Assembly: GCA_964440955.1 (NCBI GenBank)
Contig: CAYTTP010000001.1
Span: forward strand, 14,388-78,387
Length of the DNA: 64,000 bases
Reading direction: 5' to 3'
Source of the DNA: an uncultured Candidatus Saccharibacteria bacterium
GTDB taxonomy: Bacteria > Patescibacteriota > Minisyncoccia > Phycocordibacterales > WO2-35-19
Below, piece after piece: positions 1,007 to 63,206 of the stretch. Each line of letters begins with the position of its first letter. The stretch's first letter is position 1. The notes under the pieces are model-generated. The model ran no database searches, was not told the origin of the DNA, and saw only the letters and a list, made by a program, of their open reading frames with translations. The translations under genes were made by a program, and so were the position numbers.

Positions 1007-2056
1007 TTAAAGCATCCTTTCAAGTGAGCGCGGGTTGCTCGAATACATATAAGCATCCTCGATCTTTATTTCCCCTTTGTTAACCTTCTCGACCAAACAT
1101 CTGTTGAAATCGATCATCCCCTCACTCGAGCTAGTTTCGATAACCATATTTAGCTCGTGAGTTCGTTTTTCACGGATCAGGTTTGAAACAGCAGAGTTAT
1201 TGAGCAAAAGCTCATAACAAGGCACCAAACCACCTGAGACTTTAGGGATAAGCCTTTGTGAAAAAATACCAGATAGCGAAGCGGCAAGCTGCATGCGCAC
1301 CTGGTTTTGTTGGTTAGCATCAAAAGAGTCTATGATACGATCAACAGTTTGAGCGGCATTGTTGGTGTGCAAAGTCGAAAAAACAAGGTGGCCGGTTTCC
1401 GCAGCGGAGACAGCAGTGATCATTGTGTCCGGATCACGCATTTCACCGACCATGATTACATTCATATCCTCACGAAAACAGTCGTGTAAGGCTTCAGCAA
1501 ACCCTGGCGTATCGAGACCGACTTCGCGTTGGTGAATAACCGACTGCTTAGGGACAAAAAGGTGCTCGATCGGATCTTCGATTGTGATGATATTTTCGAC
1601 TCTCTCTTGGTTGATGATTTCGATCATCGAAGCCAATGTCGTTGATTTGCCGTGACCAGTAGGCCCCACTACCAAAAAGAACCCTGAACGAAGGCGGGCA
1701 AAATTAGCAAGAGATTCAGGTAGCCCAAGGTCCGAGAGAGTTGGCATTTGCTTAGGCACATGTCTGAAAGTGACACAAATCCTCTCTCGCTCAATGAAAG
1801 CATGGGCTCTAAACCTTTCCTGCTTGTGGCTATAAGCAAAGTCAGCACTTTGTTTTTGTTTGAAAGTAGCCTTTTTAAAATCGGAAAGTACGCTCTCGAG
1901 GATCTTTTCCATCATCACTCGCGAGAAGGCTTTGTATTTTGAAAGAGGCACCAATTGTCGAGAGACGCGCAGATAAGGCACCCGATCCTCCGAAATATGG
2001 AGGTCAGAAGCCCCTTCTCTTATCACCAAGTCAAACAATGTTGCTAAGTCTTCCAT
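1007..2056 (-). CDS. pilT: twitching-motility ATPase PilT (pilus retraction)
   Basis: 349 aa. It has a Walker A GPTGHGKST and the HLVFSTLHTNNA motif typical of PilT/PilU. Confidence 0.85.
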   Translation of the reverse strand: MEDLATLFDLVIREGASDLHISEDRVPYLRVSRQLVPLSKYKAFSRVMMEKILESVLSDFKKATFKQKQSADFAYSHKQERFRAHAFIERERICVTFRHVPKQMPTLSDLGLPESLANFARLRSGFFLVVGPTGHGKSTTLASMIEIINQERVENIITIEDPIEHLFVPKQSVIHQREVGLDTPGFAEALHDCFREDMNVIMVGEMRDPDTMITAVSAAETGHLVFSTLHTNNAAQTVDRIIDSFDANQQNQVRMQLAASLSGIFSQRLIPKVSGGLVPCYELLLNNSAVSNLIREKRTHELNMVIETSSSEGMIDFNRCLVEKVNKGEIKIEDAYMYSSNPRSLERML

Positions 2057-2109: not shown

Positions 2110-3885
2110 CTATAGCGAATTATACTCCTCAAACGGAATCACTCGCTCAAAAACCTTGAGCAGAGCGTCGTCTTTCATGGTAAGCATTCCCTTTGCCCTT
2201 GCGCTCTTCCATATTTCCTGTTCAGTCGGGTTTTTCAAAATTATTTGACGAAGCTCATCATCCATCTCAAGCACTTCCATGACCGCGACCCGCCCCTTCA
2301 CTCCACTAGGACAATTTGGACCAGGCGCGATTTCATAAACTTCCTTACCAATTGTAATTTCTTTTTTGTATTTTTCTGGCAAGTCGTTAAACTGTTCTTC
2401 GATCATCATTTTCAAGCTTGCATCGACTGGTATCGGCTTGCCTGCCCCTGGACAAAAAGTCCTTGCAAGTCTTTGTGCCATCGCAAGTACCAAAGTCGGA
2501 GCAATGAGATATGGGTCAACACCCATATCAATAAGCCTAGGGACAACTCCAATAGCATTGTTGGTGTGAATAGTTGAAAACACCAAGTGACCAGTAAGGG
2601 CCGCTTGAATAGCGAGCTGGGCAGTTTCTTTGTCACGGATCTCACCTACCATTATAATGTCCGGATCTTGACGAAGAGTGGTACGCAAACCGGAAGCAAA
2701 GGTGTAACCAATTTCTGGCCGAACTTGCGACTGACTCATCCCCTCCATATTGTATTCAATCGGATCCTCAAGAGAGAGTACGTTTTTCGTATCTTTATCA
2801 ACCTCGTTTAACATCGAATAAAGAGTGGTTGACTTTCCACTACCAGTCGGACCAGAAATCAAAATGAGTCCATAAGGTTGATTGATGGCGTTCATTATTT
2901 TTTCCAAATTCCTTTTCGATAAACCCAATTCGGAAAGTTTTTTGATACCCTTTTCCTGATCAAGAATACGGATCACCACCTTCTCTCCAAAATAAGTTGG
3001 AAAAGTCGAAACACGAAAATCGACTTTTCGCTCATTCAACTTTGCACTAAAGCGACCGTCTTGCGGCTTTCTTTTTTCGTCTAGGCGCATATTGGACATT
3101 ATTTTTATTCGCGCCACAACCGCAGAATGTACTCTGGCCGGCAAGACAAGTGAAGTGTTCATGATACCATCCACCCGAAACCTCACCCTCACGCTCGAAA
3201 CAGTCGGCTCGATGTGAATGTCGGAAGCTCTGCCATCGATCGCGTAGCGAAGCATGGTCGCCACTATTTTGGTCACCGGAGCGTTTTCCATCACTTTCAC
3301 ACCACTGCCATCCCCACTCTCGACCGAAGCGGACAGGTCATTCACCTCTTCCTCCTCAGTCAATGTTTCTTTCTTTTCCTTATTTTTATCGTCTTCACTC
3401 TCATTCTCTTGGGTGACAAGTTCGGTTTCGAGTTCTGAAAGCACTTTGGTCACCTCTCCTGACAAACCCTTGTAAAGTCTTATGACTTTTTCAAAGTCCT
3501 CATCTGAAATCAAAAAAAGCTTAAACGGCAAATTTACTTTGGAAGAAATAAAGTTGAGCGCGTCCCGTGCTGGTATGTTATCCGGATCGACGACTCCGAC
3601 CTCAAGCACTCCGTCTACAAGCGCAAGTGGTACGAAATGATAATAAGTTGCCGACTCTTCCGGTATATATTCGAGCACCTTACCTGTCACTGACGATACA
3701 TCAACCTCTCTGGTCGGCACACCATAATATTCTGATTTGGCAGCTAAAACATCACCTTCAGAAACACCCATCTCCAAAAGTATTTGATCAATATTTTGTC
3801 TGGAAGATTCAGCTTTGTCACGAATAGCCGCGACCTCACTTGCTTCGATCAGCCCCTTTTTTGCCAAAATGTCCAGTATGCTCAT
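2110..3885 (-). CDS. pilB: type IV pilus assembly ATPase PilB/GspE
   Basis: 591 aa. It has an N-terminal GspII-like domain, an acidic linker, a Walker A GPTGSGKSTTLYSML and a VFSTIHTNNA motif. Confidence 0.85.
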   Translation of the reverse strand: MSILDILAKKGLIEASEVAAIRDKAESSRQNIDQILLEMGVSEGDVLAAKSEYYGVPTREVDVSSVTGKVLEYIPEESATYYHFVPLALVDGVLEVGVVDPDNIPARDALNFISSKVNLPFKLFLISDEDFEKVIRLYKGLSGEVTKVLSELETELVTQENESEDDKNKEKKETLTEEEEVNDLSASVESGDGSGVKVMENAPVTKIVATMLRYAIDGRASDIHIEPTVSSVRVRFRVDGIMNTSLVLPARVHSAVVARIKIMSNMRLDEKRKPQDGRFSAKLNERKVDFRVSTFPTYFGEKVVIRILDQEKGIKKLSELGLSKRNLEKIMNAINQPYGLILISGPTGSGKSTTLYSMLNEVDKDTKNVLSLEDPIEYNMEGMSQSQVRPEIGYTFASGLRTTLRQDPDIIMVGEIRDKETAQLAIQAALTGHLVFSTIHTNNAIGVVPRLIDMGVDPYLIAPTLVLAMAQRLARTFCPGAGKPIPVDASLKMMIEEQFNDLPEKYKKEITIGKEVYEIAPGPNCPSGVKGRVAVMEVLEMDDELRQIILKNPTEQEIWKSARAKGMLTMKDDALLKVFERVIPFEEYNSL

Positions 3886-3897
3886 ACATCTTTTTTA

Positions 3898-4185
3898 TTA
3901 AAGAGAGAAAGGATTTCTCTTTCCGATCAAATCCGAAATAAGCGGCGAAGCAATACTTTTGAGTGATTGAAATTTACCGTCTTCAATCACGGTGGTGTCA
4001 AAGTTTATTGCTTCGACTTGGTTGACCAAAAGGTCAATCGAAGAAGTATCTAGCGGCTCTGCAAAAACCACTTCGTCCGAACTACCACCAAAATTCAATT
4101 TTAATACGACTCCAATAAGGAGAACGAGGACTATCATCAATATTTTTGTTCGATTATTCATGTTTTTATAACCAATATGTTTCAA
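3898..4185 (-). CDS. small membrane-anchored protein in the pilus operon (PilP-like, uncertain)
   Basis: 95 aa with a single N-terminal TM helix. It is wedged between pilO and pilB. Confidence 0.35.
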   Translation of the reverse strand: MKHIGYKNMNNRTKILMIVLVLLIGVVLKLNFGGSSDEVVFAEPLDTSSIDLLVNQVEAINFDTTVIEDGKFQSLKSIASPLISDLIGKRNPFSL

Positions 4186-4705
4186 ACTCTACTGTATACT
4201 CATAAGTATTGTTTTGCTTTGGTGTGATATTTAGAGAGCGAATGTCAAGGATCCTTAAACTTTTTTCAAGCTCTTCCATAAACGAAAGGAAAGATTCGTA
4301 GGAAGTGGTGAAGTTGAAACCAATAAGCCCAGAATGAAAACCTTTTTGATTTGCTGAATCACCTATGGTTTGACCATTTGAAGCTGAAATTTCCTGTTCG
4401 GAAACCCTCTGAATCACGATGCCGTATTTTTTGCCGATCGCCTCCACATCGGCGGTGAGCCTTACAAAATCAAATGAATCAGGCAAGATAGTATCGATGT
4501 CTTGTTTATTTTTATCAGAAAGAGCTGAAAATTGAGCTGCTAGTTGCTGCTTCTTTTCTTCTATTTGATTGATAGTTTCAAGCGAAGCTTCTCGTGCACT
4601 TTTTTCATCCTGTAAGACCTTCATGTCGTTATACATTGGATACGAAAACAAATAACCGACGATCACCGTCATCAACAATATTGATATTTGAGATACGCTG
4701 TTCAT
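4166..4705 (-). CDS. pilO: PilO-like inner-membrane pilus alignment protein
   Basis: One N-terminal TM helix, then a coiled coil and a periplasmic domain. The likely start is MNSVSQ; the longer track ORF overlaps pilN. Confidence 0.55.
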   Translation of the reverse strand: MNSVSQISILLMTVIVGYLFSYPMYNDMKVLQDEKSAREASLETINQIEEKKQQLAAQFSALSDKNKQDIDTILPDSFDFVRLTADVEAIGKKYGIVIQRVSEQEISASNGQTIGDSANQKGFHSGLIGFNFTTSYESFLSFMEELEKSLRILDIRSLNITPKQNNTYEYTVEFETYWL

Positions 4706-4709
4706 GTTT

Positions 4710-5396
4710 TTATAAATCTTCAAATGAAATATCCCCCACTTCCAAATCAATCGGTGCTAAATCATCTTCCAAGGAAGTCGATGTTGCGGTAGAGGTAGAA
4801 ACCCGAAGCGGCACCGAAACTGAAATCGGCGGGTCATAACGAAGAGCACCAGCCTCAACTGTAATAACCGCATCAAAACTTATACTTCCCTTTTCTGAAA
4901 GAGTAAGATTAGAAAAACTAATAGACTGGAAACTTTTTTCGTTTTTCAAAGCATTCTCCTGCAAAGCAACTGCCGCATAGCTTGGTGCCGACCCCTTAAC
5001 ATTCATTCGAAATGTATTTAGATCAGAATCAAAGACAAAACTGTTCCAATTGACACTACGCACCGTTGAGGAGGAGAGCGCCTCAATAGCATTTGAAGCA
5101 ACAAGATGGTTTTGGACGATTCCGCGAGCGATCGAAAGTTTGCGGCTAAAATCGTACATCCTTTTTATGCTCTTGCTATCAATATTTTTTTCAGCTTCGA
5201 CTAGTTGAGACTTAAGCGATTCGATATTGCCTTCTAGCATTTTTTTATACATATATAGACCGGCAGTCATTATCAAGACCAAAATAAAAAAGATCACTAT
5301 CAAAGTCGAAAAAATACTACCCTTCTTTTTTTGAAATGGTTCACTGCTGGTCACTGGACCTTTGGGTATGAAAGAAGATTGAAAATTTGGACCCAT
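4710..5396 (-). CDS. pilN: PilN-like inner-membrane pilus alignment protein
   Basis: 228 aa with an N-terminal TM helix, a coiled coil and a Ser/Thr-rich tail. It sits between the pilM-side insert and pilO. Confidence 0.55.
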   Translation of the reverse strand: MGPNFQSSFIPKGPVTSSEPFQKKKGSIFSTLIVIFFILVLIMTAGLYMYKKMLEGNIESLKSQLVEAEKNIDSKSIKRMYDFSRKLSIARGIVQNHLVASNAIEALSSSTVRSVNWNSFVFDSDLNTFRMNVKGSAPSYAAVALQENALKNEKSFQSISFSNLTLSEKGSISFDAVITVEAGALRYDPPISVSVPLRVSTSTATSTSLEDDLAPIDLEVGDISFEDL

Positions 5397-5408
5397 AGTT
5401 TCCCTCTC

Positions 5409-5439
5409 ATTATACTAAAGAGAAAACAATAGTGTTCAA
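5409..5439 (-). promoter_or_regulatory. sigma70-like promoter plus SD for pilN
   Basis: On the minus strand: TTGAAC(A), an 18-19 nt spacer, TATAAT, then GAGAGGGAAA and ATG. Confidence 0.45.
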
Positions 5440-5456
5440 AAAATGTGTGAATTACA

Positions 5457-5729
5457 CTACATCAATCTTTTTAATTTACGGTACACTTCATCGTCATTTC
5501 TTTTACCAATTAAAAATATAAGGACTTCCGAATCTGAAAATGAATATATTATCCTATACTCACCACTATCAACTCGAAAATACCCGATAAACCCAGTCAT
5601 GGCCTTGCTATCAGGAGGCAATGGATCATTTCCAAGACTAATAGATTTTTTAACTACTTGCTTTTGATGTTTCGTAGGAAGTTTGGAAACAAATTTCTTT
5701 GAAAGTTTTGAAAATCTTATGTTAAGCAT
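5457..5729 (-). CDS. relE: RelE/ParE-family type II toxin
   Basis: 90 aa. The C-terminal ...YRIIYSF...EVLIFLIGKRND...Y pattern is typical of RelE/StbE. It overlaps the upstream antitoxin by 8 nt. Confidence 0.7.
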   Translation of the reverse strand: MLNIRFSKLSKKFVSKLPTKHQKQVVKKSISLGNDPLPPDSKAMTGFIGYFRVDSGEYRIIYSFSDSEVLIFLIGKRNDDEVYRKLKRLM

Positions 5730-5985
5730 TTAGCACAGAATCTATAAATTTTTTGCTTTCAGCGACTCCCAGAAAACCACTTTTTATAGCTTGCTTAGCT
5801 TTTCGTCCCCAATACATGTCAATAATCTTTTCAAAATCCTCGTAACGAGAATAATCTTCTTTTGAAATAAGTACGGCGACCTCACGTCCATTTTTCTTTA
5901 TACCAACAGGAAAGCGGCGGGCTTCATCCAAAAGCCTACCGAAGTTATTTTTTGCTTCCTTTGCTGTAAATATTGTTTTAGCCAT
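5722..5985 (-). CDS. phd: Phd/YefM-family antitoxin
   Basis: MAKTIFTAKEAKNNFGRLLDEA... is the Phd/YefM N-terminal signature. The track ORF extends to 6012 but an internal start fits better. Confidence 0.7.
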   Translation of the reverse strand: MAKTIFTAKEAKNNFGRLLDEARRFPVGIKKNGREVAVLISKEDYSRYEDFEKIIDMYWGRKAKQAIKSGFLGVAESKKFIDSVLNA

Positions 5986-6100
5986 AATAGCTATTATAGC
6001 CAAAGTAGCCACTTTGTCAAATAGATCGTAAATAAAAGACCACCCGTTTCCGAGCGATCGCGTTCACCTCCTTTCTGGTGATTGGTTGAGTTATGTGTAG

Positions 6101-6330
6101 TGTCGAGACTCCGGCAAGACTACCTTGTGATACAGAAACATCCCGAGGATGGATCCGAACAACAAAGTCATCACACCGCAGGAGAACCCGAACCAGATGA
6201 TTGCGATGTTCACGGCCTCGAATACCGGATCGACGTTGCCCACAACTACACATGCGGCTACGGCGATCGAAAAGAGGATGATGGTTATCCCATATCCGAT
6301 AGGTCAAATGACTCTCAAAAACAATCTCAT
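6101..6330 (-). other. small hydrophobic ORF (about 2 TM helices) with an SD and ATG, interrupted by an in-frame TGA after codon 8
   Basis: AGGAGA-N6-ATG MRLFLRVI, then TGA, then PIGYGITIILFSIAVAACVVVGNVDPVFEAVNIAIIWFGFSCGVMTLLFGSILGMFLYHKVVLPESRHYT. The region is GC-rich. Confidence 0.3.
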
Positions 6331-6454
6331 ATTTTTCTCCTAAAGAACTTGGATTTTACTCCCACCGCAGGAAACTTTTTCAAATTCTCTCTGGTAGAAG
6401 TCCGAGGTGTATTCACTCGGACACCGGTTCGTCACCGGATTTTATACTGGCGGG

Positions 6455-7342
6455 CTACTGGGCCTTCTCCACGCGTTTCCACATGGGGACGTAGTGAACG
6501 TCCGGATCAGCAACGTCGAGTTCGGGGTGGGGCTTCACGGTCCACACACCAGGTTTGCAGTAGATCGAAAGCTCGGTAGAGCCTTTACCTACATTCACCC
6601 GGATAGAACCGCAGCCTTCGCGTGTATACCCCTTCCGTTCCGCTTCTCTCTCGCCGTTGCCTTGAAAGACATTCAGCTTGAAATGTTCGGGACGAGCGAA
6701 GGAGAACTTGAACTCCTGCGACTTGGTCACGATCAATCCGGTTTTGTTTTCCAGATTGAACAATACGACCGAGTTCACTTCAGAGACAAGTGTGTTCGCA
6801 CGAGTTTGGCCGAAAAGCGCGTTGAACGCTTTCACACCATCACCCGCTTTCCACTCGAAGTTGTGGTCGTGAGATTCAATCGCTTGAACCTGCGCGACTA
6901 CCGGATATTCAGCGAGTAGCTTGGATTCGCGCTCGATCTTCTTGTCGATGTCGAGCACGCGCTCACCGGTTTTCCGAAGTAAGTTCCGTAATTTACGGAA
7001 TCCTTCGGCCTCAGCGAACATATTGATGGCGAGATGCGAGAAGCTCGGCATGATGCGTTCGGTGTTGCCGAACCCACCTTCAAGCCACTTGCATTCAATT
7101 TCAGCGGCAGCGAGAGCGTTGATCACATCTTCTCCAAAAACTGGAAAGTGGTGATCGGATTCGTGACAGTCGCCGACAATGATGACCTTGGTTTTTCCAG
7201 TGGCTTTCACCTCCTGGATCAACAGGTTCATGTCTACGACGGCCGGGCAGAAATTGCCGGCGATAACGACGCAATCCTCGGCTACCTTCATGTCCAACTC
7301 GTAGCCATTCTTCGGGTCCTGGGTGAACGTAACTTTCTTCAT
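6455..7342 (-). CDS. hypothetical protein; possibly a metal-dependent hydrolase (GDCHESDHH motif). GC-rich and likely horizontally acquired
   Basis: 295 aa ORF preceded by a GGAGA SD. GC content is well above the surrounding sequence. I cannot place it in a family confidently. Confidence 0.5.
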   Translation of the reverse strand: MKKVTFTQDPKNGYELDMKVAEDCVVIAGNFCPAVVDMNLLIQEVKATGKTKVIIVGDCHESDHHFPVFGEDVINALAAAEIECKWLEGGFGNTERIMPSFSHLAINMFAEAEGFRKLRNLLRKTGERVLDIDKKIERESKLLAEYPVVAQVQAIESHDHNFEWKAGDGVKAFNALFGQTRANTLVSEVNSVVLFNLENKTGLIVTKSQEFKFSFARPEHFKLNVFQGNGEREAERKGYTREGCGSIRVNVGKGSTELSIYCKPGVWTVKPHPELDVADPDVHYVPMWKRVEKAQ

Positions 7343-7435
7343 TGTCTTTCTCCTTCTGGGGTTGCCAGTATGTGATTTTCAAGTAGGGTTGGGGCTACCA
7401 ACCGCTTGTACATAGGGTTTAACCTATCTGGATAT

Positions 7436-7464
7436 ATTATAGCAAATTATACCTTATTTGTCAA
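7436..7464 (-). promoter_or_regulatory. consensus sigma70 promoter (TTGACA-17-TATAAT) driving the inserted GC-rich gene
   Basis: On the minus strand: TTGACAaataaggtataatttgcTATAAT. A second TTGACAAAT repeat lies 20 nt upstream. Confidence 0.5.
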
Positions 7465-7541
7465 TTATTTTTTAGATTTGTCAAACAAGTCCTAATAAGC
7501 CTATTTGTAATGGGTTTTTTAAATTATCGTTAGAGCAAAAT

Positions 7542-8633
7542 CTACAACTCCCCCAGTGCTCGGAGGGCACAGCCAACGGCGACTGTAAATTCGGGGCCAG
7601 TCACTTTCAAAACATTTTCCAAGAAAGCAGGAGTTTCTACTTTTTCAAATGGGTTACCTGACACCACTTCAACTTTAAAATTAGAGGCCGCGAGTTCACG
7701 TAAGCCCCGCAAAGCTGACCCGCCACCAGTCAAAAATACCGAGCGAATATTTTCGTTACGCTTTTTTTGAAAAGTAAATAGAAAACGATTGGCTTCAGCA
7801 AATATCTCGGCGGCAATCACACTTGCTGCTTCGCTCAAATCAACCCCTTCAGGTGTTCGCCCCATGCCGATGTTTCGCTTCAATACTTCTGCTTCTTCAG
7901 TAGAGACATTCAAAAGCCGTGCAATATTGGCTGTAATATCTTGCGAGCCTCGGTTTACCGTATGGGAATGGTGAACAAGCCCACGCTCGACAATATAGAG
8001 TTTGGTAGTTGAAGCCCCCATGTCAAAAATCATAAGCGGTCCCTTTACTCCCTCAAGCACTGCTCTCATCGAACTAAAAACCTCGATCTCAAAAAATTTG
8101 GCGTCGATACCAGTTTTGTCCACTATTTCTTTGTATTGATTGATGATGTTGTTGTGGATAGCAACAAGAAGGACATCGAGTGTTTTGGGCTTCATTTCAC
8201 TGTCATCATCAGACTCTATTTTAGGTACGATTGACCAATCAAGAGTCACATCAGAAATCGGCACGGGGATATATTTTCGCGCTTCAATCGGCACTAGGCT
8301 TGCAAGCTCTTTCTCGGTCATTTTTGGTACTTCTATAACCGACATCAAACTCGCTCTGAAAGGTATGGCGAGTCCGGCAATATGAGTACTTAATCCAACC
8401 TCTTTTTCTGCTAGCAAATCACCTATCGCTTGAATTATTTTTTCTGTCGGCAAATTGGTCGACTGACCAACCGACACCTCAGCATAAGGTCCGAGCGAAA
8501 GCTCCCCATAAGTATTGAGGATGGCTTTGTCCCCTTTCTTTTCGAGTTGCACCACTTTGATTGAAGATGAACCTATGTCTATACCCAAAGCGGAAACACT
8601 TTTCTTTTTGAAGATGTCCGAAAGAAAACTCAT
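7542..8633 (-). CDS. pilM: type IV pilus assembly ATPase-like protein PilM (actin fold)
   Basis: 363 aa. The N-terminal GIDIGSSSIKVVQL and the two actin-like (ASKHA) half-domains are typical of PilM and FtsA. Confidence 0.75.
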   Translation of the reverse strand: MSFLSDIFKKKSVSALGIDIGSSSIKVVQLEKKGDKAILNTYGELSLGPYAEVSVGQSTNLPTEKIIQAIGDLLAEKEVGLSTHIAGLAIPFRASLMSVIEVPKMTEKELASLVPIEARKYIPVPISDVTLDWSIVPKIESDDDSEMKPKTLDVLLVAIHNNIINQYKEIVDKTGIDAKFFEIEVFSSMRAVLEGVKGPLMIFDMGASTTKLYIVERGLVHHSHTVNRGSQDITANIARLLNVSTEEAEVLKRNIGMGRTPEGVDLSEAASVIAAEIFAEANRFLFTFQKKRNENIRSVFLTGGGSALRGLRELAASNFKVEVVSGNPFEKVETPAFLENVLKVTGPEFTVAVGCALRALGEL

Positions 8634-9370: not shown

Positions 9371-9493
9371 GAACTTACTTTTTATTTGCTCCAGATAAGC
9401 GATTATGGCCACGAAAACAAAAAGGCCAATGAGTGAAAGTACAGATACAAATCTTGCCATACTTAACACACCATAACACAAACTAGGCCAAAC

Positions 9494-9519
9494 AAAAAAT
9501 CCGCGGAAGCGGATTTTTT
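9494..9519 (-). terminator. bidirectional hairpin terminator after rplE
   Basis: aaaaaatccgc ggaa gcggatttttt. Confidence 0.6.
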
Positions 9520-9535
9520 GTTTGATAATTTAAAA

Positions 9536-10075
9536 TTATTTTTTGAATGGAAAATCTAGAGCTTTGAAAAATTCTAATGCCTTTTTAGGATCTTTGATAT
9601 TGGTGACAATAGTTGCGGCAAAACCAAAGACGTCTTTCAAATCTTCGTCAGCTGTTTCGGGAAATACTGTATGTTCTTTTATTGATAGAGTGTAGTTGCC
9701 CATTTCATCGACGGCAGTAGCAGAAATACCACGAAAATCTTTGGTTCGAGGCAAAGCAACATTGAAAAGCCTGTCTAGGAAGCTCCACATCTTTTCGCCA
9801 CGCAAAGAAACTTGGACACCAACAATGTCGCCAATCCGTGACTTGAAAGTAGCAATCGCCTTTTTGGCGCCTCGCCTGATTGGTTTTTGACCTGTTATTT
9901 TAGCCAACCTATCTTCGACTATTTCTATTTTCTTTTTATCGCTAAAGGAACCAACACCAGAATTTACCACCACCTTTACTATTTTTGGCGCCTGCATGAC
10001 GTTTTTTAGACCCAATTTATCCTTGAGTTCTTTGTATGCTTCCTTTGTTTTTTCTTTCATCAATTTTGTTTTCAT
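9536..10075 (-). CDS. rplE: 50S ribosomal protein L5
   Basis: 179 aa with L5 family motifs (…VSLRGEKMWSFLDRL…). Confidence 0.9.
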   Translation of the reverse strand: MKTKLMKEKTKEAYKELKDKLGLKNVMQAPKIVKVVVNSGVGSFSDKKKIEIVEDRLAKITGQKPIRRGAKKAIATFKSRIGDIVGVQVSLRGEKMWSFLDRLFNVALPRTKDFRGISATAVDEMGNYTLSIKEHTVFPETADEDLKDVFGFAATIVTNIKDPKKALEFFKALDFPFKK

Positions 10076-10095
10076 GTTTTTGTTCTTGTCTGGTT

Positions 10096-10134
10096 CCCCC
10101 TCTCTTGTTGTGAGAGAGGGGGTTAGGGGGTGAG
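10096..10134. repeat. GC-rich palindromic repeat (family copy): ccccctctct…agagaggggg…gggggtgag
   Basis: A hairpin-forming GC-rich island in AT-rich intergenic DNA between rplX and rplE. It ends with the family tail GGGGTGAG. Confidence 0.6.
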
Positions 10135-10350
10135 TTATTGTTTCTTAACGTTCGATACGTGTATTGGTGTTGCTTGTTCAACGATCTTTCCTTTCTCACC
10201 CTGCTTTCGCGCTCTGCGGTGCAATTTTTTAATGTTTACACCATCAATCAAGACAAGAGAAAGTTTTGGAAATGCTTTCACTACTGGACCGGACTTGCCC
10301 TTGTCTTTGCCGGTTATCACTATTACTTTGTCTCCTTTTTTGATTTTCAT
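10135..10350 (-). CDS. rplX: 50S ribosomal protein L24
   Basis: 71 aa with a KOW motif (MKIKKGDKVIVITGKDKGK). Confidence 0.9.
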   Translation of the reverse strand: MKIKKGDKVIVITGKDKGKSGPVVKAFPKLSLVLIDGVNIKKLHRRARKQGEKGKIVEQATPIHVSNVKKQ

Positions 10351-10395
10351 GTTTTTATTCGTGTCATTCGCGCAAATCCGTGGATTGGTGTCGGG

Positions 10396-10773
10396 TTAAA
10401 TAATTTCCGGCGCCAAAGTAACGATCGCCTGGTGTCCAGCTTCTGCTATTTCCCTTGGGATCGGACCAAAAACACGACCAGCCTTTGGCAAGATTTCACC
10501 TTTCTTTTGTTCAACTACAATCACCGCATTTTCATCGAAACGAATGTACGACCCATCCTTACGGCGAAGTGGAGACTTTTGTCTCACCACCATCCCAAGC
10601 AAGACCGCCTTCTTCTTGACCTCTTTTCGGGGCTCAGCCTTTTGAACCGAAAATATTACCAACTCACCTATTTTGGCATATCTTTTTTTTGAGCTACCGA
10701 GTATTTTGAAAATGCGCCCGATTTTCGCTCCGGAATTATCTACCACTTTGACGATTGATCGAGGCTGAATCAT
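10396..10773 (-). CDS. rplN: 50S ribosomal protein L14
   Basis: MIQPRSIVKVVDNSGAK… is the classic L14 N-terminus. Confidence 0.9.
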   Translation of the reverse strand: MIQPRSIVKVVDNSGAKIGRIFKILGSSKKRYAKIGELVIFSVQKAEPRKEVKKKAVLLGMVVRQKSPLRRKDGSYIRFDENAVIVVEQKKGEILPKAGRVFGPIPREIAEAGHQAIVTLAPEII

Positions 10774-10788
10774 TTTAGTAAATTTAAA

Positions 10789-11049
10789 TTAAATGACGAT
10801 GAAGTGCTTGGTCTTTGAAATCGGCCTTGTTTCTCGTATTTCGACCTTGTCGCCCATTTGCTTCACATTGCCAACATCGTGGGCTTTGTATTTTTTGTTC
10901 ACTTTGTAGTACTTCTTGTACTTTGGGTGTTTAACAAAACGCACCACATCAACAACTACCGTGTCTTTCATCTTGTTCGACACGACTACCCCTCGGAGTA
11001 CTTTGCCTCCGACTTTGGTATTTTGCGTTTTTTGAGCCGTTTTTTTCAT
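10789..11049 (-). CDS. rpsQ: 30S ribosomal protein S17
   Basis: 86 aa, …[16 protein letters not shown]…. Confidence 0.85.
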
Positions 11050-11090
11050 TGTTTACAAGTTCTATAAATCTACACAAATTTTCAAAATTA

Positions 11091-11510
11091 TCAAGCGCGC
11101 GCGACCCCCTTTGCTTTTACCGGCAATTTGGTGCCACCTTTGCGAAGAGCTTCAAGACCAACTGCCGCAGTAACACCGTCAACCTCAAACATGATCTGTC
11201 CTGGCAAAACCCTAGCGCAATACCCTTCGATATCACCCTTACCTTTACCCATTTTTACTTCCGCTGGCTTTTTGGTGAAAGGCATGTCTGGGAAAATACG
11301 AATCCAAACGCGACCGGTTTTGCCGACCGCACGACTGATAGCCTTTCTGGCTGATTCGATTTGGTTTGAAGTTATCCTAGCTGCGGTGAGCGCTTTGAGC
11401 CCGTATGAACCAAAAGCTACGGTGATACCGCGAGTTGCTGGAGAAACACGAGCCGGATTGCGTCGCAAGGTCTGCCACTTTCGATATTTTACTTTTTTAG
11501 GAAACAGCAT
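11091..11510 (-). CDS. rplP: 50S ribosomal protein L16
   Basis: MLFPKKVKYRKWQTLRR… There is only a 42 bp gap to rpsQ and no L29 gene between them. Confidence 0.9.
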   Translation of the reverse strand: MLFPKKVKYRKWQTLRRNPARVSPATRGITVAFGSYGLKALTAARITSNQIESARKAISRAVGKTGRVWIRIFPDMPFTKKPAEVKMGKGKGDIEGYCARVLPGQIMFEVDGVTAAVGLEALRKGGTKLPVKAKGVARA

Positions 11511-11546
11511 GTTGGTAAATTAAAATTGAAGATTAAATATTGAAAA

Positions 11547-12206
11547 TTATTTTTTGGCAAAGATTTCACCTTTATATATCCAAACCTTAATACCAATTTT
11601 TCCAAGTGGCAAAAGCGCTTCATAAAAAGCATAGTCGATATCTGCGCGCAAAGTCTGGAGCGGGATACGGCCAACCTTTTTTGATTCAACTCTGGCCATA
11701 TTGGAGCCACCCATAATACCGGAGAGAGTTATCTTCACTCCCTTAACATCACGATTAGCAAACGCCTTTTCAATCATTTGCTTGACCACTCTCCTGAAAG
11801 GCAACCTCTTTTCAAGTCCTTCAGCTACCATTTGAGCCACAATCATTGAGCTCGACTCGGGCGACTTAACCTCTTTCACATCAATCTTAACCTCCTCTTT
11901 CACATTAAGCTTTGCTTTGCGAATAAAGCTCAAAACATCATCACGGAGCTTTGTCATACCCTCGCCACTTCGGCCAATGATAAGTCCTGGGCGTGAAGTC
12001 TCAATGATCACTCTAAAAGTTTTCATGTTGCGCTCGATCTCGATTGAGTTTACATACATACCCTTCAAGCGTTTGGTCAAATATTCGTATATCAAAACGT
12101 CGCCTTTCAAGTTTTCCTTGTATTTTGTTCTTACACCAAACCAACGAGATTTCCAGTCCCTGATTATGCCGAGTCGGTGTGCGTATGGATGTACTTTATG
12201 GCTCAT
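11547..12206 (-). CDS. rpsC: 30S ribosomal protein S3
   Basis: 219 aa with a KH domain (GLIIGRSGEGM). Confidence 0.9.
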   Translation of the reverse strand: MSHKVHPYAHRLGIIRDWKSRWFGVRTKYKENLKGDVLIYEYLTKRLKGMYVNSIEIERNMKTFRVIIETSRPGLIIGRSGEGMTKLRDDVLSFIRKAKLNVKEEVKIDVKEVKSPESSSMIVAQMVAEGLEKRLPFRRVVKQMIEKAFANRDVKGVKITLSGIMGGSNMARVESKKVGRIPLQTLRADIDYAFYEALLPLGKIGIKVWIYKGEIFAKK

Positions 12207-16812: not shown

Positions 16813-17775
16813 TTATTTTCTATCTTTTTCGTTAAATCCACCAGCTACCGTCATCTCTCCTTTTAAGGCTGGGTGTGGATCATACCCTTCAAGGGTGACC
16901 ATTTCTGGCCTAAAATTTTCTAGATCTTTAATTTCATCACTTAACACAAGTCTCGGTAGTGGTCGAGGTTCTCTAGTGAGCTGTTCTTTCACTTGCTCTA
17001 AATGATTGTGATAAATATGCACATCTCCAAGTGTATGTATAAACTCTCCCGGCTCATACCCAGCAATTTTGGCAATAATCATAGTCAATGCAGCATAACT
17101 TGCAATGTTAAATGGAACACCAAGAAATGTGTCGCAACTCCTTTGATACAAAAGGCAAGATAATTTATTGCCCGAAACATTAAAATGAAAAAGAATATGG
17201 CAGAGAGGAAAACTGAGCGCTTCCCCAGGAAGAGCCATTCCGTATAAAAACTGTGGATTCCAAGCTGACAAAACTGCATGCTTCCTTTCAGGAAAGTTTT
17301 TAAGAGTATCTACAACCCAAGCGAGTTGATCAATTTTTCTCCCATCTGCTGCAGGCCAGGCTCTCCACTGCTCTCCATAAATACGTGGGAGTTCTCCGTG
17401 CTCCTTTGCAAATTTTTCATCCTGCCTTATTTTTTCAACAAACTCCTCTTTGGTTAAGTTTGGCAATTGTCCTTTATCTGCTTTTGCTTTATATATTTTA
17501 TAAGGATAGTCATTCCAAATTGGTACCTTATGATCAACAAGATATTTTATATTCGTCTGACCAGACATAAACCAATAGAGCTCCTGAATGATACTATTCC
17601 AAGGAACTTTTTTTGTAGTCAAAAGAGGAAAACCTTTTGATAAATCGAAGCGTATTTGTCTTCCAAAAATACTAGTTAGACCATTACCCGTATTGTGATC
17701 TTTTTTTTCAACTCCATTATCCAATATATCTTGTAATAATTCGAGATACTGATACTCAGGGTGATCTTTTTTCAT
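16813..17775 (-). CDS. thyA: thymidylate synthase ThyA
   Basis: Catalytic region …LPPCHILFHFNV… and the DTFLGVPFNIASYA motif. The internal start MKKDHPEYQY is more plausible than the long track ORF. Confidence 0.85.
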   Translation of the reverse strand: MKKDHPEYQYLELLQDILDNGVEKKDHNTGNGLTSIFGRQIRFDLSKGFPLLTTKKVPWNSIIQELYWFMSGQTNIKYLVDHKVPIWNDYPYKIYKAKADKGQLPNLTKEEFVEKIRQDEKFAKEHGELPRIYGEQWRAWPAADGRKIDQLAWVVDTLKNFPERKHAVLSAWNPQFLYGMALPGEALSFPLCHILFHFNVSGNKLSCLLYQRSCDTFLGVPFNIASYAALTMIIAKIAGYEPGEFIHTLGDVHIYHNHLEQVKEQLTREPRPLPRLVLSDEIKDLENFRPEMVTLEGYDPHPALKGEMTVAGGFNEKDRK

Positions 17776-17779
17776 GGTA

Positions 17780-18346
17780 TTATTTTTTATTTTTAATAGA
17801 ATCCTCTTTTTTGGGAGTAAAATGATTTGAATTTTTCTTACCATAACGACCCGTCTTTTCGTACCCATTCCTTGTTTGGGAAGTAAGTCTTGCAAATAAT
17901 AATTGAGCAATTTCCATACCAGGTCTTAATATAAGAGGGACATTATTGGTATTTACCAATTCAAATGTAGGATAAAAATAATGCCCAGGATTAAATAACA
18001 TGGCCGTATTGTGTACAACAAGCCCAGCCCTAGCTAAACTGCTCTTACCCGACAATAAAATAAGATGTTCGTGATCTACGCCTATAAATTCCTTCTGTTT
18101 ACCCAAAACACTTTCCCCTGGGTGTAACACAAACTCTTCCCCATCTTTTACTTTTATAGTTCTTGTTTGTGGATATATCTTATTATATGGATCGATAACC
18201 TTTGTCTTGTGTCTATCAGTAACTTCAAATTCATTACCAAGCAATACATCATAACTTGCTGGTTGTAATTGTTTTTCAACAAATGGCTTAATTACAATTT
18301 TTCCCTTCTTAAGAGCCTCTCTTATGTCTACATCAGATAAAAACAT
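17780..18346 (-). CDS. dcd: dCTP deaminase
   Basis: 188 aa with the dCTP deaminase/dUTPase fold (…GLVVHNTA…). Confidence 0.8.
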   Translation of the reverse strand: MFLSDVDIREALKKGKIVIKPFVEKQLQPASYDVLLGNEFEVTDRHKTKVIDPYNKIYPQTRTIKVKDGEEFVLHPGESVLGKQKEFIGVDHEHLILLSGKSSLARAGLVVHNTAMLFNPGHYFYPTFELVNTNNVPLILRPGMEIAQLLFARLTSQTRNGYEKTGRYGKKNSNHFTPKKEDSIKNKK

Positions 18347-18347
18347 T

Positions 18348-19016
18348 TTATTCTATATTAAATACTTTATCCGTCCCATAATAATCTTTCCAATTTTCAT
18401 TATAATACTTAAACATTCTTTCCAACCTATCCTGAGGAAGTTCTGTAACTCCAAATTCAGCCATCAGGGCAAGTAAATCTGCTTTTATAGATTCTGTTTG
18501 TGTCTCGTCATTACTAATTTTTTCAAATTCTGCAAGGTAACCATATCCGGCATTTTTATCTAAACATATATTTATATCACCAACTTTATATTCTTCACGC
18601 TCACGAGACCATTTTGCTTGATAAGTTAAACCTGATTCAAGTAACAAATTATCAAGTCTGTCTAAAGTCATATCTATTTTTGATTCAAACTCCATTCTTG
18701 AGACACCATTTGCGCTTGAATCACTTCCTACAGATGCCTTAACCACTAAAAATACTTCTCCGTCTGCGTCTCTAGTGCGCACAGAAAAGTTTTTACCTTC
18801 CGTTAAAATTTTATTAAATAAATCTCTATCTTCTGATTTTATATGTGATTCAAGTTTATTTTTAAAAAGATTTGTATCTGAAATAATAAAATAATGATTT
18901 AACTGTTTATTTTGTTTTAAAAGCATTCCCCCCCGAGAATGTATTTTCTGTTTTAATGCATTTGCATTTTCTAAGCTTCCAAGCAGACTTTTTATTTCAA
19001 TTTCATAAGTAGACAT
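18348..19016 (-). CDS. CYTH-domain protein (triphosphate tunnel metalloenzyme-like), uncertain
   Basis: 222 aa. The N-terminal EIEIKSLL resembles the CYTH ExExK motif. It is the first gene of the minus-strand dNTP and folate operon. Confidence 0.4.
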   Translation of the reverse strand: MSTYEIEIKSLLGSLENANALKQKIHSRGGMLLKQNKQLNHYFIISDTNLFKNKLESHIKSEDRDLFNKILTEGKNFSVRTRDADGEVFLVVKASVGSDSSANGVSRMEFESKIDMTLDRLDNLLLESGLTYQAKWSREREEYKVGDINICLDKNAGYGYLAEFEKISNDETQTESIKADLLALMAEFGVTELPQDRLERMFKYYNENWKDYYGTDKVFNIE

Positions 19017-19062
19017 TCGTAGGTGATTAAATTATTGTGTAAGTATATCAACGTAAGTATGT

Positions 19063-19566
19063 ATGGCAAATATTGCAAAAAACAAAAAAATCAGCCTAAT
19101 TGTCGTCTTAAGCAAGAAAAATAGAGCTATTGGTATAAAAAATAAGCTTTTATGGAAGATAAATGGCGATTTGCCTCGTTTCAAAAAACTAACTACAGGT
19201 CACCCTATTATAATGGGACGCAAAACATATGAATCGATAGGGCGACCACTTCCAGATAGAACAAATATAATAATCACACGAAACCCTTCCCTAAAAATTG
19301 ATAATTGCCTTATTGCAAATTCTATAGAAGAAGCTGTTAGAATAGCCGAGTGTGCAGAAGGTAGCGATGAAATTTTCATTATAGGTGGTGGAGAGATATT
19401 CAAAGAGTCAATAACTTTAGCTGACCGACTCTATCTCACTGTCGTAAATGATGAGCCAGTGGCTGATACTTTTTTCCCCGAATACTCAAATTTTAGAAAA
19501 GAAATATTTCACGAAGACTGCCACGAACACAACCCGTCTTTTTCATACATAACTTTAGAAAAGTAA
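19063..19566 (+). CDS. folA: dihydrofolate reductase
   Basis: 167 aa, …IGIKNKLLWKINGDLPRFKKLTTGHPIIMGRKTYESIG…. Confidence 0.85.
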   Translation: MANIAKNKKISLIVVLSKKNRAIGIKNKLLWKINGDLPRFKKLTTGHPIIMGRKTYESIGRPLPDRTNIIITRNPSLKIDNCLIANSIEEAVRIAECAEGSDEIFIIGGGEIFKESITLADRLYLTVVNDEPVADTFFPEYSNFRKEIFHEDCHEHNPSFSYITLEK

Positions 19567-54472: not shown

Positions 54473-55255
54473 TTATTTTTTATTGAAGCGCTTAAAGTAG
54501 TCATCGATTTCGCCACGAAGTTCAATTCCAACTCGTTCAAAACAATCTAATAAATCTTTGTATGTGCCTTTACCACCAAGAAAATCCCAAAATTCATCAG
54601 CTACTTTAAGCTCATTATCCAAATCAAGCATTCCACGCATTGTCCATCGAGTGTAGGGTTCTGGTTCGTAAGGATTATATGGAATTGCGATAAATGTGTT
54701 TATATCGGCTTTTGGATTGTTCGCCAAAGTTACAGCGACCCATTCAAGTAGTGTTCGTTTAAATTCCTTAAATCCTCCAGCATTAGGTTTTGCTGTTTTT
54801 ATATCAAATAAATAATAACCGCCGTCTTTTGATTCAAACATTAAATCTACTTTGGTAGGTTTTGCTTTTATCATCTCACCAGACTGACAAACTTTTCTTA
54901 TTCGTTCAATTTCTTCTTTTTTGTTTGGTGATGATGTCGCTGTCGTTAGCCCGTCAATAATTTTCTGTATTTCTGCTTGTGCGCCAGTGCTTATACGATC
55001 TCCGGCAGTAGCTTGGCATGTAGCCATTTTAAAATTCTTTTGTGCTAAAGCTAAGCCAACCGGTTCAAAAATACTTGTTCCAAAATTAGTATTGAGCGAA
55101 TGGATAAATGAATAAAGTGCCAATCTATCCTTACCCAAAAGACGAGTATGGAATGGCATCGAAGCCGGTTCCGGTTTGTAATTTTGGAATTTGTTTCTGA
55201 GACTTGCTTTTAATACATCCTCAACATTCTTAACTTGTTCTTTTGATAGTGTCAT
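54473..55255 (-). CDS. type II restriction endonuclease (PD-(D/E)xK fold)
   Basis: 260 aa. The putative catalytic region is …MFESKDGGYYLFDIKTAK… It lies 4 nt downstream of a DNA methyltransferase gene. Confidence 0.6.
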   Translation of the reverse strand: MTLSKEQVKNVEDVLKASLRNKFQNYKPEPASMPFHTRLLGKDRLALYSFIHSLNTNFGTSIFEPVGLALAQKNFKMATCQATAGDRISTGAQAEIQKIIDGLTTATSSPNKKEEIERIRKVCQSGEMIKAKPTKVDLMFESKDGGYYLFDIKTAKPNAGGFKEFKRTLLEWVAVTLANNPKADINTFIAIPYNPYEPEPYTRWTMRGMLDLDNELKVADEFWDFLGGKGTYKDLLDCFERVGIELRGEIDDYFKRFNKK

Positions 55256-55259
55256 AAAA

Positions 55260-56834
55260 TTATACTGATTTAAAATGAAAAATTATTTCGGAATATGGAT
55301 TCCTGTCCCGTTCTGTTCGATTCAAAACAGGTCTTTTAAATTGATTCACAATCTTCATTCCAGATTTTTCAGCAATTTCTGGATAGAGATTGTATTTATC
55401 GTTTGCCACAAGGAAAATGTCATAATCATCTTTTAAGTATTTCTTACAATTATTTAGCACATCAGCTATTCCTTGGGCGTATGATCTACGTGCCTCCTGT
55501 CCTTGTCCTTTGTAAAGAGGACCAATTTCTAGATCGTCTTTTCTCTTAAAACCCAGCAAATCATAAGCATAGGCGTGTTGTTCGTGATAATCTATCTGTC
55601 CAACATATGGAGGCGAGCAAAATATACCCGAAATTTTTTGTTTTTTGAGAATCTTTGCAAACTCCGGATTTTGCTTTTCAACTTTTTCAAAAATATCCAC
55701 AGCTCTTGAATCACCAGCAATAGCCGAGTAATGGACTGGTTTTCGCAATCTTTCAAATTCCTTAATTCTTGAAACTGTATCGTAAGCGTAACGATTAAGC
55801 ATTGTTTTTATAGAGAACAACGGCTTGCAAATCTTTTTATGCTTATAACAATAGTATGTAGTTAGTTGAGGTTCTTTTAGAGTAGCAAGATCACTGTGTG
55901 TTGTAGCTCGGCATGACCTAATTGTTCGACTCAAAATCAGAGCTAAAATCTTTTTTGTTTTCACATCCTTCTCTTGCTTTATGGTGTTAAAGACATGATT
56001 AATTTCTTTTCTCACATTATCCATAAACCAAGTGTCTAAAAATGATTCAGTCTTGTCTTGTTTCAGTTTTATTGAATATTTTTTGAGTAATTTTTGATAT
56101 GTAGGCAAAAACTCCTTTTCTTTTTCTGAAGAAAACTTTTTTTCATCAAAATTTCCCTGATTTATTTTATATTTGAAATCTGAGCCGGGAAAATGTTTGT
56201 TATTAAATTTTGCCAATTCTGCCAACAACTCTGTTTCAAATTCTTGTATTCTGTTATCATGCTCAAAAGTATCTATTGCGGAGAGCATTTTTTTAATTGC
56301 TTTCTGTAAATAGTCGTGATCATAGTTTGTTGCCTTGCAACTCGCAATCATGCAATTAAACTCAGACACATCAATACCCACGGAATGGATACCCATTTCT
56401 AGTGACTGAATAATTGTTGTTCCTGAACCTAAAAAAGGATCGAGGACTATATCACCGGTTTTAAAATAAACTTCTTTTTTAAAATCATCAGTATGGGAAT
56501 CAATAAAATATTCAACCAGTTGCGGAATATATTTTCCTTTGTATGGATGTAATCTATGAACATGCTTCGTCGTATCTTTTTCCCTGAGATTATCAAAAGA
56601 CAACGCCCAGTTTAAGTCATCGCCAAGTTGTTTTTTCCAATCAATCTCTCGTTTACCTTTCCATGATTCGTAATACTTTTTCAAATCATTCAAATCAACA
56701 AGGGTTGATCCATTTTCTCCAAGTTTCTTAACCTTACCGTATTGAACAAGGTAAGAAATATTTGTTGGCGATACTTCTTTTTCAAGATAGTCCGTCGCCC
56801 ATTTTGATGCTTCGTGTATAGTTACTAATGACAT
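55260..56834 (-). CDS. DNA methyltransferase (amino-MTase with motif I DPFLGSGTT and motif IV SPPY; N6-adenine or N4-cytosine)
   Basis: 524 aa. FxGxG-type DPFLGSGTT lies near residue 130 and CSPPYVGQIDY near residue 415, an alpha-like motif order. Confidence 0.75.
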   Translation of the reverse strand: MSLVTIHEASKWATDYLEKEVSPTNISYLVQYGKVKKLGENGSTLVDLNDLKKYYESWKGKREIDWKKQLGDDLNWALSFDNLREKDTTKHVHRLHPYKGKYIPQLVEYFIDSHTDDFKKEVYFKTGDIVLDPFLGSGTTIIQSLEMGIHSVGIDVSEFNCMIASCKATNYDHDYLQKAIKKMLSAIDTFEHDNRIQEFETELLAELAKFNNKHFPGSDFKYKINQGNFDEKKFSSEKEKEFLPTYQKLLKKYSIKLKQDKTESFLDTWFMDNVRKEINHVFNTIKQEKDVKTKKILALILSRTIRSCRATTHSDLATLKEPQLTTYYCYKHKKICKPLFSIKTMLNRYAYDTVSRIKEFERLRKPVHYSAIAGDSRAVDIFEKVEKQNPEFAKILKKQKISGIFCSPPYVGQIDYHEQHAYAYDLLGFKRKDDLEIGPLYKGQGQEARRSYAQGIADVLNNCKKYLKDDYDIFLVANDKYNLYPEIAEKSGMKIVNQFKRPVLNRTERDRNPYSEIIFHFKSV

Positions 56835-56843
56835 AAGTTTATT

Positions 56844-63160: not shown

Positions 63161-63206
63161 CAAAATATTTACGACGACAAACGTCTAAAAAACTTAAAAA
63201 AGCAAA

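Follow-up and report, generated by a model that had tools for sequence, protein, structure and literature searches.

In lambdoid phage genomics, morons are autonomous promoter–gene–terminator units of deviant composition that lie between two other genes, while early operons of the T7 type are polycistronic and carry RNase III processing hairpins between their genes. These systems, together with the type II toxin–antitoxin (TA) pairs, provide the closest described counterparts to the DNA considered here: a 2145-nt region (5397–7541) that separates the pilus genes pilM and pilN within a 64-kb stretch of contig CAYTTP010000001.1, called the window throughout. The region contains a Phd/YefM–RelE pair and a unit rich in guanine and cytosine (GC) built around an open reading frame (ORF) for a 295-aa protein, ORF295 (Table 1). 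Labels beginning with L and P denote loci and proteins, respectively.

The explanation that we favor, and to which we would give a probability of roughly three in four, is that the pilM–pilN spacer of Candidatus Zambryskibacteria carries a native pilN promoter preceded by a short box, that the DNA just upstream of this box is a hot spot for insertion, and that in this genome two independent inserts have been stacked there. The first, beside pilN, would be a Phd/YefM–RelE pair with its own consensus promoter, and the second, between pilM and the TA promoter, a cut-down copy of a GC-rich unit of moron-like layout that is scattered singly at unrelated loci of Patescibacteria. Expression of pilN–pilT would then depend on the ancestral promoter, left intact by both inserts. 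The initial annotation had instead proposed one composite addiction cassette, GC-rich over all of its 2.1 kb and acquired horizontally in a single event, which split pilMNO and brought a new promoter from which pilN–pilC expression was re-established. All of the parts are indeed found side by side between pilM and pilN and share one strand, and the GC-rich part has the marks of foreign DNA.

The junction was compared by fetching 43 PilM loci and mapping all of their pil genes, which made it readable in about 33 relatives; the PilM of the window shares 65–78% identity with that of metagenome-assembled genomes (MAGs) labelled Candidatus Zambryskibacteria or Patescibacteria. In most Zambryskibacteria relatives the gap from pilM to pilN is 56–100 nt long, and these short spacers contain AGTAATCAACA, then TTTACAC-17-(G)AGTATAAT, then the pilN start codon. 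Whether or not they carry an insert, nearly all Zambryskibacteria relatives have this box and TTTACAC-17-AGTATAAT upstream of pilN. The box is an 11-mer just upstream of the pilN -35 element, has a single site per locus (in loci of 8–17 kb, e.g., L008, 6715–6725) and is a candidate for an operator, or an UP-like element, that controls the pilus genes. The pilN promoter of the window, which together with its GTAATTCACA box spans 5455–5409, scores 10/12 and is followed by a Shine–Dalgarno sequence (SD), as had been annotated. Because box and promoter precede pilN in nearly all relatives, including those with the 56–100-nt spacers, this promoter is evidently the ancestral, diverged copy of the lineage-wide one; the idea that it was new does not survive its presence in relatives free of inserts, which also speaks against a single cassette. 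The inserts apparently landed upstream of it and left it intact, with no operon "repaired".

Unrelated inserts of 0.4–1 kb occupy the same pilM/pilN position in six further loci (L013, L014, L016, L019, L039 and L041). The one in L016, a Zambryskibacteria-like MAG, is a DUF559 gene for a Vsr-like endonuclease (9438–9860; PF04480, E 4e-32), and its presence in this same spacer supports the view that the stretch just upstream of the box is, to judge from these occupants, an insertion hot spot for small selfish DNA. We also observed GC-rich palindromic repeats that recur in junction inserts (L013, L014, L016, L019; L007, 3300–3360) and beside ORF295 units (downstream in L057, upstream in L063); such repeats, e.g., CCCTTCTCTTGTTGTAAGAGAAGGG, are translated as 'PSPCEGEG' or 'GGVGG' in spurious ORFs, and they look like elements of the REP/MITE (repetitive extragenic palindrome/miniature inverted-repeat transposable element) type belonging to Patescibacteria.

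The TA genes are co-directional with the antitoxin first, and the two genes overlap by 8 nt (ATGCTTAA), so that this part of the initial annotation can be retained, the antitoxin being above its Pfam cut-off. The antitoxin starts with the ATG at 5985 and not with the GTG at 6012. The toxin, whose nearest solved relative is E. coli RelE (PDB, E 1.2e-3), likely falls within the RelE/ParE superfamily. The operator palindrome (5977–6004) has 14-nt arms that are 86% complementary, and the promoter/operator sequence TTGACAAAGTGGCTACTTTGGCTATAAT(A/G)GCTA is conserved in L007, L011 and L035, three other Zambryskibacteria species which have the same pair at the same junction without ORF295 (identities of 63–82% for the antitoxin and 53–73% for the toxin). 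The -10 element (5998–5993) ends 7 nt upstream of the ATG (5985–5983) with no SD between them, a spacing similar to that in the three relatives, and a leaderless TA mRNA is possible. A 15-nt direct duplication of the pilN box bounds the pair on both sides in L007 and L035. On a neighbor-joining tree of PilM+PilB+PilT the TA-bearing lineages are scattered, L007 being sister to the empty L009, and from this patchy distribution it would therefore follow that the pair has been repeatedly gained or lost at the pilM/pilN site. We take it to be a genuine and ordinary type II Phd/YefM–RelE pair. As in its family generally, the antitoxin presumably binds the palindrome over the -10 element and the ATG and neutralizes a ribosome-dependent, mRNA-cleaving toxin, an action that would make the locus hard to lose.

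The two parts of the region have opposite composition biases. The TA region (5397–6029) is AT-rich (GC 0.338, z -1.9) and the GC-rich module stands at about 0.49, with GC falling from about 0.5 to about 0.35 at the terminator between them. The rise in GC that had been noticed across 6.0–7.4 kb is real, the GC-richest 1400-nt stretch of the whole window being 6032–7431, and ORF295 is as GC-rich as was claimed when its GC at third codon positions (GC3) is set against the 63 other ORFs of the window (Table 1). What cannot be upheld is the description of all 2.1 kb as one GC-rich cassette. The GC-rich unit was not found at pilM/pilN in any of the readable relatives; ORF295 homologues were recovered in 13 distinct genomic loci, none of them at this junction, and none of the other ORF295 loci has an adjoining TA pair. 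Horizontal acquisition accordingly applies to the GC-rich part, and the comparison of relatives divides the region, in that the TA genes are shared between pilM and pilN and ORF295 is not. With the TA pair alone at the junction in three relatives, ORF295 elsewhere never beside one, the halves at 0.34 and 0.49, and no hydrolase signature in the protein, a single cassette is very improbable.

Since its GC deviates, the junction is empty of it in relatives and its homologues lie at unrelated loci, the GC-rich unit (about 6030–7506) is in all appearance foreign and self-contained, with its own promoter, leader, genes and terminator. Measured against the usual description of a horizontally acquired islet, it has the deviant composition, the absence at the orthologous site and the occurrence in unrelated contexts elsewhere, and lacks mobility genes and defined ends. 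Its order would be a consensus promoter, a three-hairpin leader, ORF295, structured spacers, variable small genes and a terminator. The promoter, correctly annotated as TTGACA-17-TATAAT at 7436–7464, matches the consensus at 12/12 positions, and TTGACA/TTGACT-17-TATA(A/C)T occurs at an equal distance from the leader in 11 homologous loci. As a class, promoter-like matches are not enriched in the scan (11 found, 10.0 expected), and the three promoters discussed here are credited because they are conserved in related loci, not on scan numbers. A direct repeat (6013–6031/7477–7495, 79%) is also present in the L051 copy and probably belongs to the element.

ORF295 belongs to a very small family, with 14 homologues among 5.8 billion proteins and 21 profile matches among 1.84 billion representatives; a metagenome scan contributed one further short locus only. 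It was found only in Patescibacteria-type contexts and at a different locus each time, the neighbors being rpsO, def/fmt (twice), rpmB, ychF, pth/der, a gene of the metallo-β-lactamase fold, a methyltransferase and, in one case, a block with a serine recombinase and a primase. In 12 of the 13 loci the gene has a GC of 0.51–0.54 and a GC3 of 0.58–0.68 against a flank GC of 0.34–0.47; the distant members P0011 and P0032 look compositionally native. One context deserves separate description: in L004, a PATE-6 Zambryskibacteria MAG, a tyrosine recombinase split by an intein with a LAGLIDADG endonuclease (9428–11611; precomputed Pfam domains) stands 2.5 kb away from the ORF295 homologue, and a second pilB/pilC cluster lies about 2 kb away on its other side.

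Pfam, PHROG, NCBIfam and PADLOC were run on ORF295 and 30 family members. ORF295 has no match in any of them at E≤0.1 beyond noise, none was obtained for the 30 members, and PDB sequence-profile searches with A1 and A2 returned noise only. The GDCHESDHH sequence had been taken for a hydrolase-like motif, with profile searches for metallophosphoesterase, HD or other hydrolases suggested; no such profile matches, and only G57, D58 and C59 of the motif are conserved, HESDHH being replaced by DDHNG, DDHHGD and the like in homologues and situated in a loop with a low predicted local distance difference test score (pLDDT). The invariant residues are instead IESH-H at 155–160, C262, H272 and PMW at 286–288. 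An AlphaFold2 (AF2) model from 30 sequences (pLDDT 85.5, predicted template modelling score 0.76) would start with an α/β domain, continue in a long helix and end in a domain rich in β-structure. Foldseek comparisons of two AF2 models with PDB, and of the first model only with BFVD, gave nothing at E≤1e-3, the best template modelling (TM) score being ≤0.22. Matches to integrase/RuvC, EcoT38I restriction endonuclease and cytidine-deaminase folds are weak and inconsistent (TM≤0.22) and are not relied on.

The leader begins at the predicted transcription start (CAGAUAGG…) and forms three hairpins, namely P1 (AUAGG/CCUAU), P2, with an outer stem CAAG/CUUG and an inner stem UUGG-UAGCC-CCAA, and P3 (CUGG-YAACC-CCAG), which ends 2 nt upstream of the SD AAGGAG; P2 and P3 have the invariant core UGG-NARCC-CCA in common. 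All 11 leaders fold individually into the same three hairpins, and the covariance model R1 matches each of them at E 1e-10 to 1e-22, with a single site in the window. Of the leader cells, 90.7% are paired, compared with 82.4% in shuffles and 26–48% in slid controls, and nine pairs have changed on both sides, a number reached by none of 500 shuffles. Compensatory changes in the outer stem of P2 turn CAAG/CUUG into CUAGC/GCUAG (L053) and GUGCG/CGCAC (L056), and those in its inner stem GGUUGG/CCAACC into AACUGG/CCAGUU (L055) and UCUGG/CCAGA (L053). Promoter, leader and a 3' CGCCAGTAT…CCGGU-loop-ACCGG hairpin accompany the ORF295 gene across loci. Rfam has no family for the leader or the spacers, at gathering thresholds or at E≤10.

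A leader peptide was tried as another explanation of this conservation (MYKRLVAPTLLENHILATPE, MYKRLVAPT…, fused to the ORF in two gene calls) and rejected: L053, L057 and L063 lack its ATG, yet compensatory changes preserve the hairpins, and therefore the constraint acts on the RNA. As a tentative suggestion, ORF295 might bind the UGG-NARCC-CCA hairpins of its own leader, and since the second of these abuts the SD, binding would repress translation of ORF295; we hold this to be possible rather than probable. The leader of P0032, a distant and host-like homologue, is of another kind (L064, 9010–9176): two GGGAAACC repeats are accompanied there by a CCUACC/GGUAGG hairpin. Members of the family may retain a structured leader after its sequence has diverged.

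Downstream of ORF295 the window copy can be understood by comparison with L052, a longer copy in which ORF289, ORF187, ORF79, ORF135 and ORF218 are followed by a terminator; all five genes are GC-rich and none has a family match in profile searches. The spacers of longer copies contain a GC-rich hairpin, different in sequence each time, and then a long AT-rich hairpin closed by CUUCC…GGGAG. The intergenic structured spacer (IGS) of the window is a hybrid of two such spacers of L052: positions 3–113 after ORF295 match IGS1 at 79% and positions 67–392 match IGS2 plus ORF79 at 88.8% (blastn), so that window 6030–6388 and L052 2933–3259, the latter being the second spacer and ORF79, share 88.8% identity; ORF187 is not in the window copy. 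Because the DNA after ORF295 matches first IGS1 and then IGS2 and ORF79, the window copy has to all appearances lost ORF187 by recombination between two spacers.

ORF79 would then have acquired a nonsense codon. The small hydrophobic ORF of the initial annotation does exist, as the pseudogene of a 79-aa protein: homologues P0035–P0037 and L052 2992–3231 read MRLFLRVIWP…, with TGG (Trp) where the window has TGA at 6306–6304. TGA is a rare stop codon in the window, ending two of 66 ORFs (e.g., 11091–11510) compared with 44 ending in TAA and 20 in TAG. Origin from a TGA-recoded donor was considered and dismissed, as the homologues have TGG at this site, TGA is a stop in the host and ORF295 has no in-frame TGA; the long ORFs of the window are intact under table 11, and therefore TGA is not recoded. 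ORF295 alone is likely still functional in the window copy. Double hairpins between genes of longer ORF295 units were noted at L052 2098–3868 and L004 6943–7111, and in the window at 6331–6454; they may be RNA processing or recombination sites.

Such an arrangement could also mean that the ORF295 unit derives from a phage, satellite or integrative element of Patescibacteria, either as its remnant or as its moron. It would then be a block resembling an early operon, with hairpins for processing between the genes, and no free-standing element of the chromosome. Besides the promoter–genes–terminator layout and the foreign composition, all genes of the unit are small and without a known family, the double hairpins would resemble phage RNase III sites, the L051 gene has a serine recombinase, an HTH_17 protein and a primase-like gene for neighbors, and assemblies fragment around the unit. 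Set against these are the failure of tblastn to find ORF295 in 50,697 INPHARED phage records or in PLSDB plasmids, the absence of any relative or leader motif in the protein and leader-motif scans of IMG/VR, and the lack of a PHROG match for any gene of the unit. Moreover, the neighboring element in L051 is AT-rich, unlike the gene, and P0032, a distant homologue located between pth and der, is resident and host-like. A phage or satellite origin is, on balance, unlikely.

Other classes of element fare no better. For insertion sequences (IS) and TnpB/IscB with ωRNA, there is no Pfam transposase or RuvC match, Rfam returns nothing at E≤10, the unit is single-copy in the window and the RNase-H-like Foldseek matches are sub-threshold (TM≤0.22). 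For type III TA systems of the ToxIN kind, the leader contains a pair of similar hairpins and lacks tandem repeats and a terminator, and neither ToxN nor any PADLOC match was found. For integrons, the spacers end in GGGAGTAAA…AAGTTCTTT without attC RYYYAAC…GTTRRRY cores, and the region contains no integrase.

Several observations weigh against the explanation by two independent inserts, or against its parts. The toxin reaches 19.9 bits with PF05016, under the 23-bit cut-off, and stays far under that of TIGR02683. The borders of the GC-rich unit show neither a mobility gene nor a terminal inverted repeat, no target-site duplication there is convincing, and in the window no integrase or tRNA target defines the ends of the unit; its left end near 7506 is placed by similarity to L051, in one pairwise alignment only. 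The leader alignment behind the pair counts was fitted to R1. The junction from the unit terminator to the Phd promoter is seen in the window contig only, and three Logan contigs from different runs stop at the same base, 76 nt past the ORF295 stop and inside the spacer hairpin. Finally, GC3 stays high (0.58–0.68) among ORF295 members that are only 43–55% identical, which a simple recent transfer does not explain.

The two points on junctions could be accounted for by an assembly or binning artefact, in which a GC-rich fragment of another organism was joined into the contig. The junction from pilM through the promoter to ORF295, however, is identical in three independent Logan assemblies from separate runs, the order ORF295, IGS, ORF79 agrees with L052, a clean terminator closes the unit immediately upstream of the conserved Phd promoter, and 12 other assemblies, two NCBI MAG contigs of >90 kb among them, have a similar unit flanked by host genes. 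An artefact of this kind is scarcely credible. The shared contig end (L001 6964, L002 3495, L003 1822; about 6379 in the window) suggests a branch point of the assembly graph, caused by strain variants or by a cassette shared in the community. The L050 and L051 contigs likewise end 42–94 nt past the gene.

The persistent GC3, together with the host-like composition of P0032 and P0011, would be expected if ORF295 were a vertically inherited host gene made GC-rich by selection, e.g., on mRNA structure or expression level. Such a gene should not be missing from the syntenic site in every readable relative, have a different neighborhood in every genome and be represented by as few as 14 proteins among 5.8e9, and the ribosomal-protein genes of the window do not have a high GC3; we judge vertical inheritance to be extremely improbable. 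The explanation by two inserts upstream of an ancestral pilN promoter is therefore the one that we retain.

Table 1. Features of the pilM–pilN region and its flanks (window coordinates)
Feature	Position	Strand	Evidence
PilT	1007–2056	-	T2SSE
PilB	2110–3885	-	T2SSE
PilO	4166–4750	-	PF04350
PilN-position gene, downstream flank	4710..5396	-	synteny; 34–48% identity to the gene after pilM in relatives
Native pilN promoter region: degenerate GTAATTCACA box (5445–5457), TGAACA-18-TATAAT (5438–5409), SD	5397..5456	-	aligns with the AGTAATCAACA…TTTACAC-17-AGTATAAT region of relatives
RelE/ParE-superfamily toxin (likely), 90 aa	5457..5729	-	phrog_1213 RelE-like E 5.6e-10, full length
Phd/YefM-family antitoxin, 87 aa	5722..5985	-	PF02604 E 6.9e-11, 42.2 bits (cut-off 29.8); TIGR01552 3e-10, 39.3 bits (cut-off 20.8)
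Phd–RelE promoter TTGACA-16-TATAAT (6020–5993) and palindrome 5977–6004 over -10 and ATG	5977..6020	-	12/12 match; inverted repeat I12
Intrinsic terminator, stem 6059–6038 and T-run, closing the unit directly before the Phd promoter	6030..6059	-	terminator scan
Pseudogene of 79-aa protein with two transmembrane segments; ATG 6330–6328 with SD AGGAG, nonsense TGA 6306–6304, stop 6093–6091	6091..6330	-	homologues
IGS: CCGGUGACGAACCGG hairpin, GUCCGAG…CUCGGAC hairpin, CUUCUACC…GGUGGGAG-closed hairpin	6331..6454	-	blastn against L052
ORF295, GC-rich 295-aa protein	6455..7342	-	GC 0.524, GC3 0.649, z 3.45 against 0.388±0.075
Conserved 91-nt leader, three hairpins	7340..7430	-	covariance model R1, individual folding
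Consensus sigma-70 promoter TTGACA-17-TATAAT; second TTGACA 7484–7479	7436..7464	-	12/12 match
Residual native spacer 3' of the pilM stop codon, approximate boundary	7507..7541	-	L051 similarity begins at position 36 of the 199-nt spacer
pilM, upstream flank of the insertion site	7542..8633	-	PF11104 PilM_2 E 2.6e-40

In the pilus cluster itself, a Pfam search with the PilN-position gene gave no match, and a 95-aa ORF lies between PilO and PilB on the minus strand. Elsewhere in the window there is a tRNA-Ile with anticodon UAU at 63088–63161(+); bacteria mostly read AUA by means of a lysidine-modified CAU tRNA, and a UAU anticodon is uncommon. The stretches 17764–19163 and about 55000–57000 are strongly AT-rich (GC 0.31–0.35, the lowest in the window) and may be other foreign or fast-evolving regions.

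In conclusion, the type IV pilus cluster, which is important to the life of Patescibacteria as episymbionts, retains its own promoter without being rewired by the inserts, and across Zambryskibacteria a hot spot for insertion can be recognized before pilN, together with a candidate regulatory box, AGTAATCAACA. A very rare 'dark matter' gene unit has been delimited, with its own promoter, a covariation-supported RNA leader and structured spacers, which gives experimenters a defined protein/RNA pair to work with, and small mobile units of this sort circulate among the reduced genomes of Patescibacteria without recognizable mobility genes. We found no description of the ORF295 unit in the literature: it is an undescribed unit of moron-like layout with a promoter of its own. 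The TA pair, for its part, is ordinary. A bolder proposal would make it a self-contained mobile operon specific to Patescibacteria, whose protein, of a new fold, recognizes the paired leader hairpins and possibly the downstream double hairpins, and so links self-regulation or the processing of RNA with a cassette-like turnover of the downstream genes, while the unit keeps its GC-rich composition wherever it inserts; we mention it as a speculation that is unlikely to hold in full.

When set beside known systems, the TA pair is like E. coli RelBE and YefM–YoeB (and P1 Phd–Doc for the antitoxin fold) in its antitoxin-first order, gene overlap and Phd/YefM domain, as well as in the small basic RelE-like toxin, the palindrome over the promoter and the variable intergenic site. 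It differs in that the -10 element ends 7 nt before the ATG, possibly giving a leaderless mRNA, in the duplicated pilN-promoter box that flanks it in two relatives, and in a toxin that has diverged beyond the curated cut-offs of Pfam and NCBIfam and may be of either the RelE or the ParE kind. The leader resembles translational operators, such as the coat-protein hairpin of MS2 and PP7 or the leaders of ribosomal-protein genes, in its short hairpins, here two of them, whose loop and closing pairs do not vary, in the closeness of P3 to the SD (2 nt) and in being conserved more strongly than the coding sequence; ORF295 is unlike any known RNA-binding fold, and the analogy applies to its possible mode of action only.

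With phage early operons the ORF295 unit shares a similar double hairpin after each gene; gene content varies among copies, as it does in such operons and in integron cassette arrays, with one deletion mapping between two spacers. It differs in that its first gene has its own promoter, and unlike integron arrays it has neither attC core sites nor an integrase. The likeness to phage morons is that the unit has a near-consensus promoter and a terminator, a GC unlike both flanks, the same direction as the unrelated cluster in which it sits and a distribution of presence and absence among close relatives. It differs from them in residing in Patescibacteria chromosomes instead of known phages, and in adding a conserved structured leader, structured spacers and, in longer copies, up to five genes.

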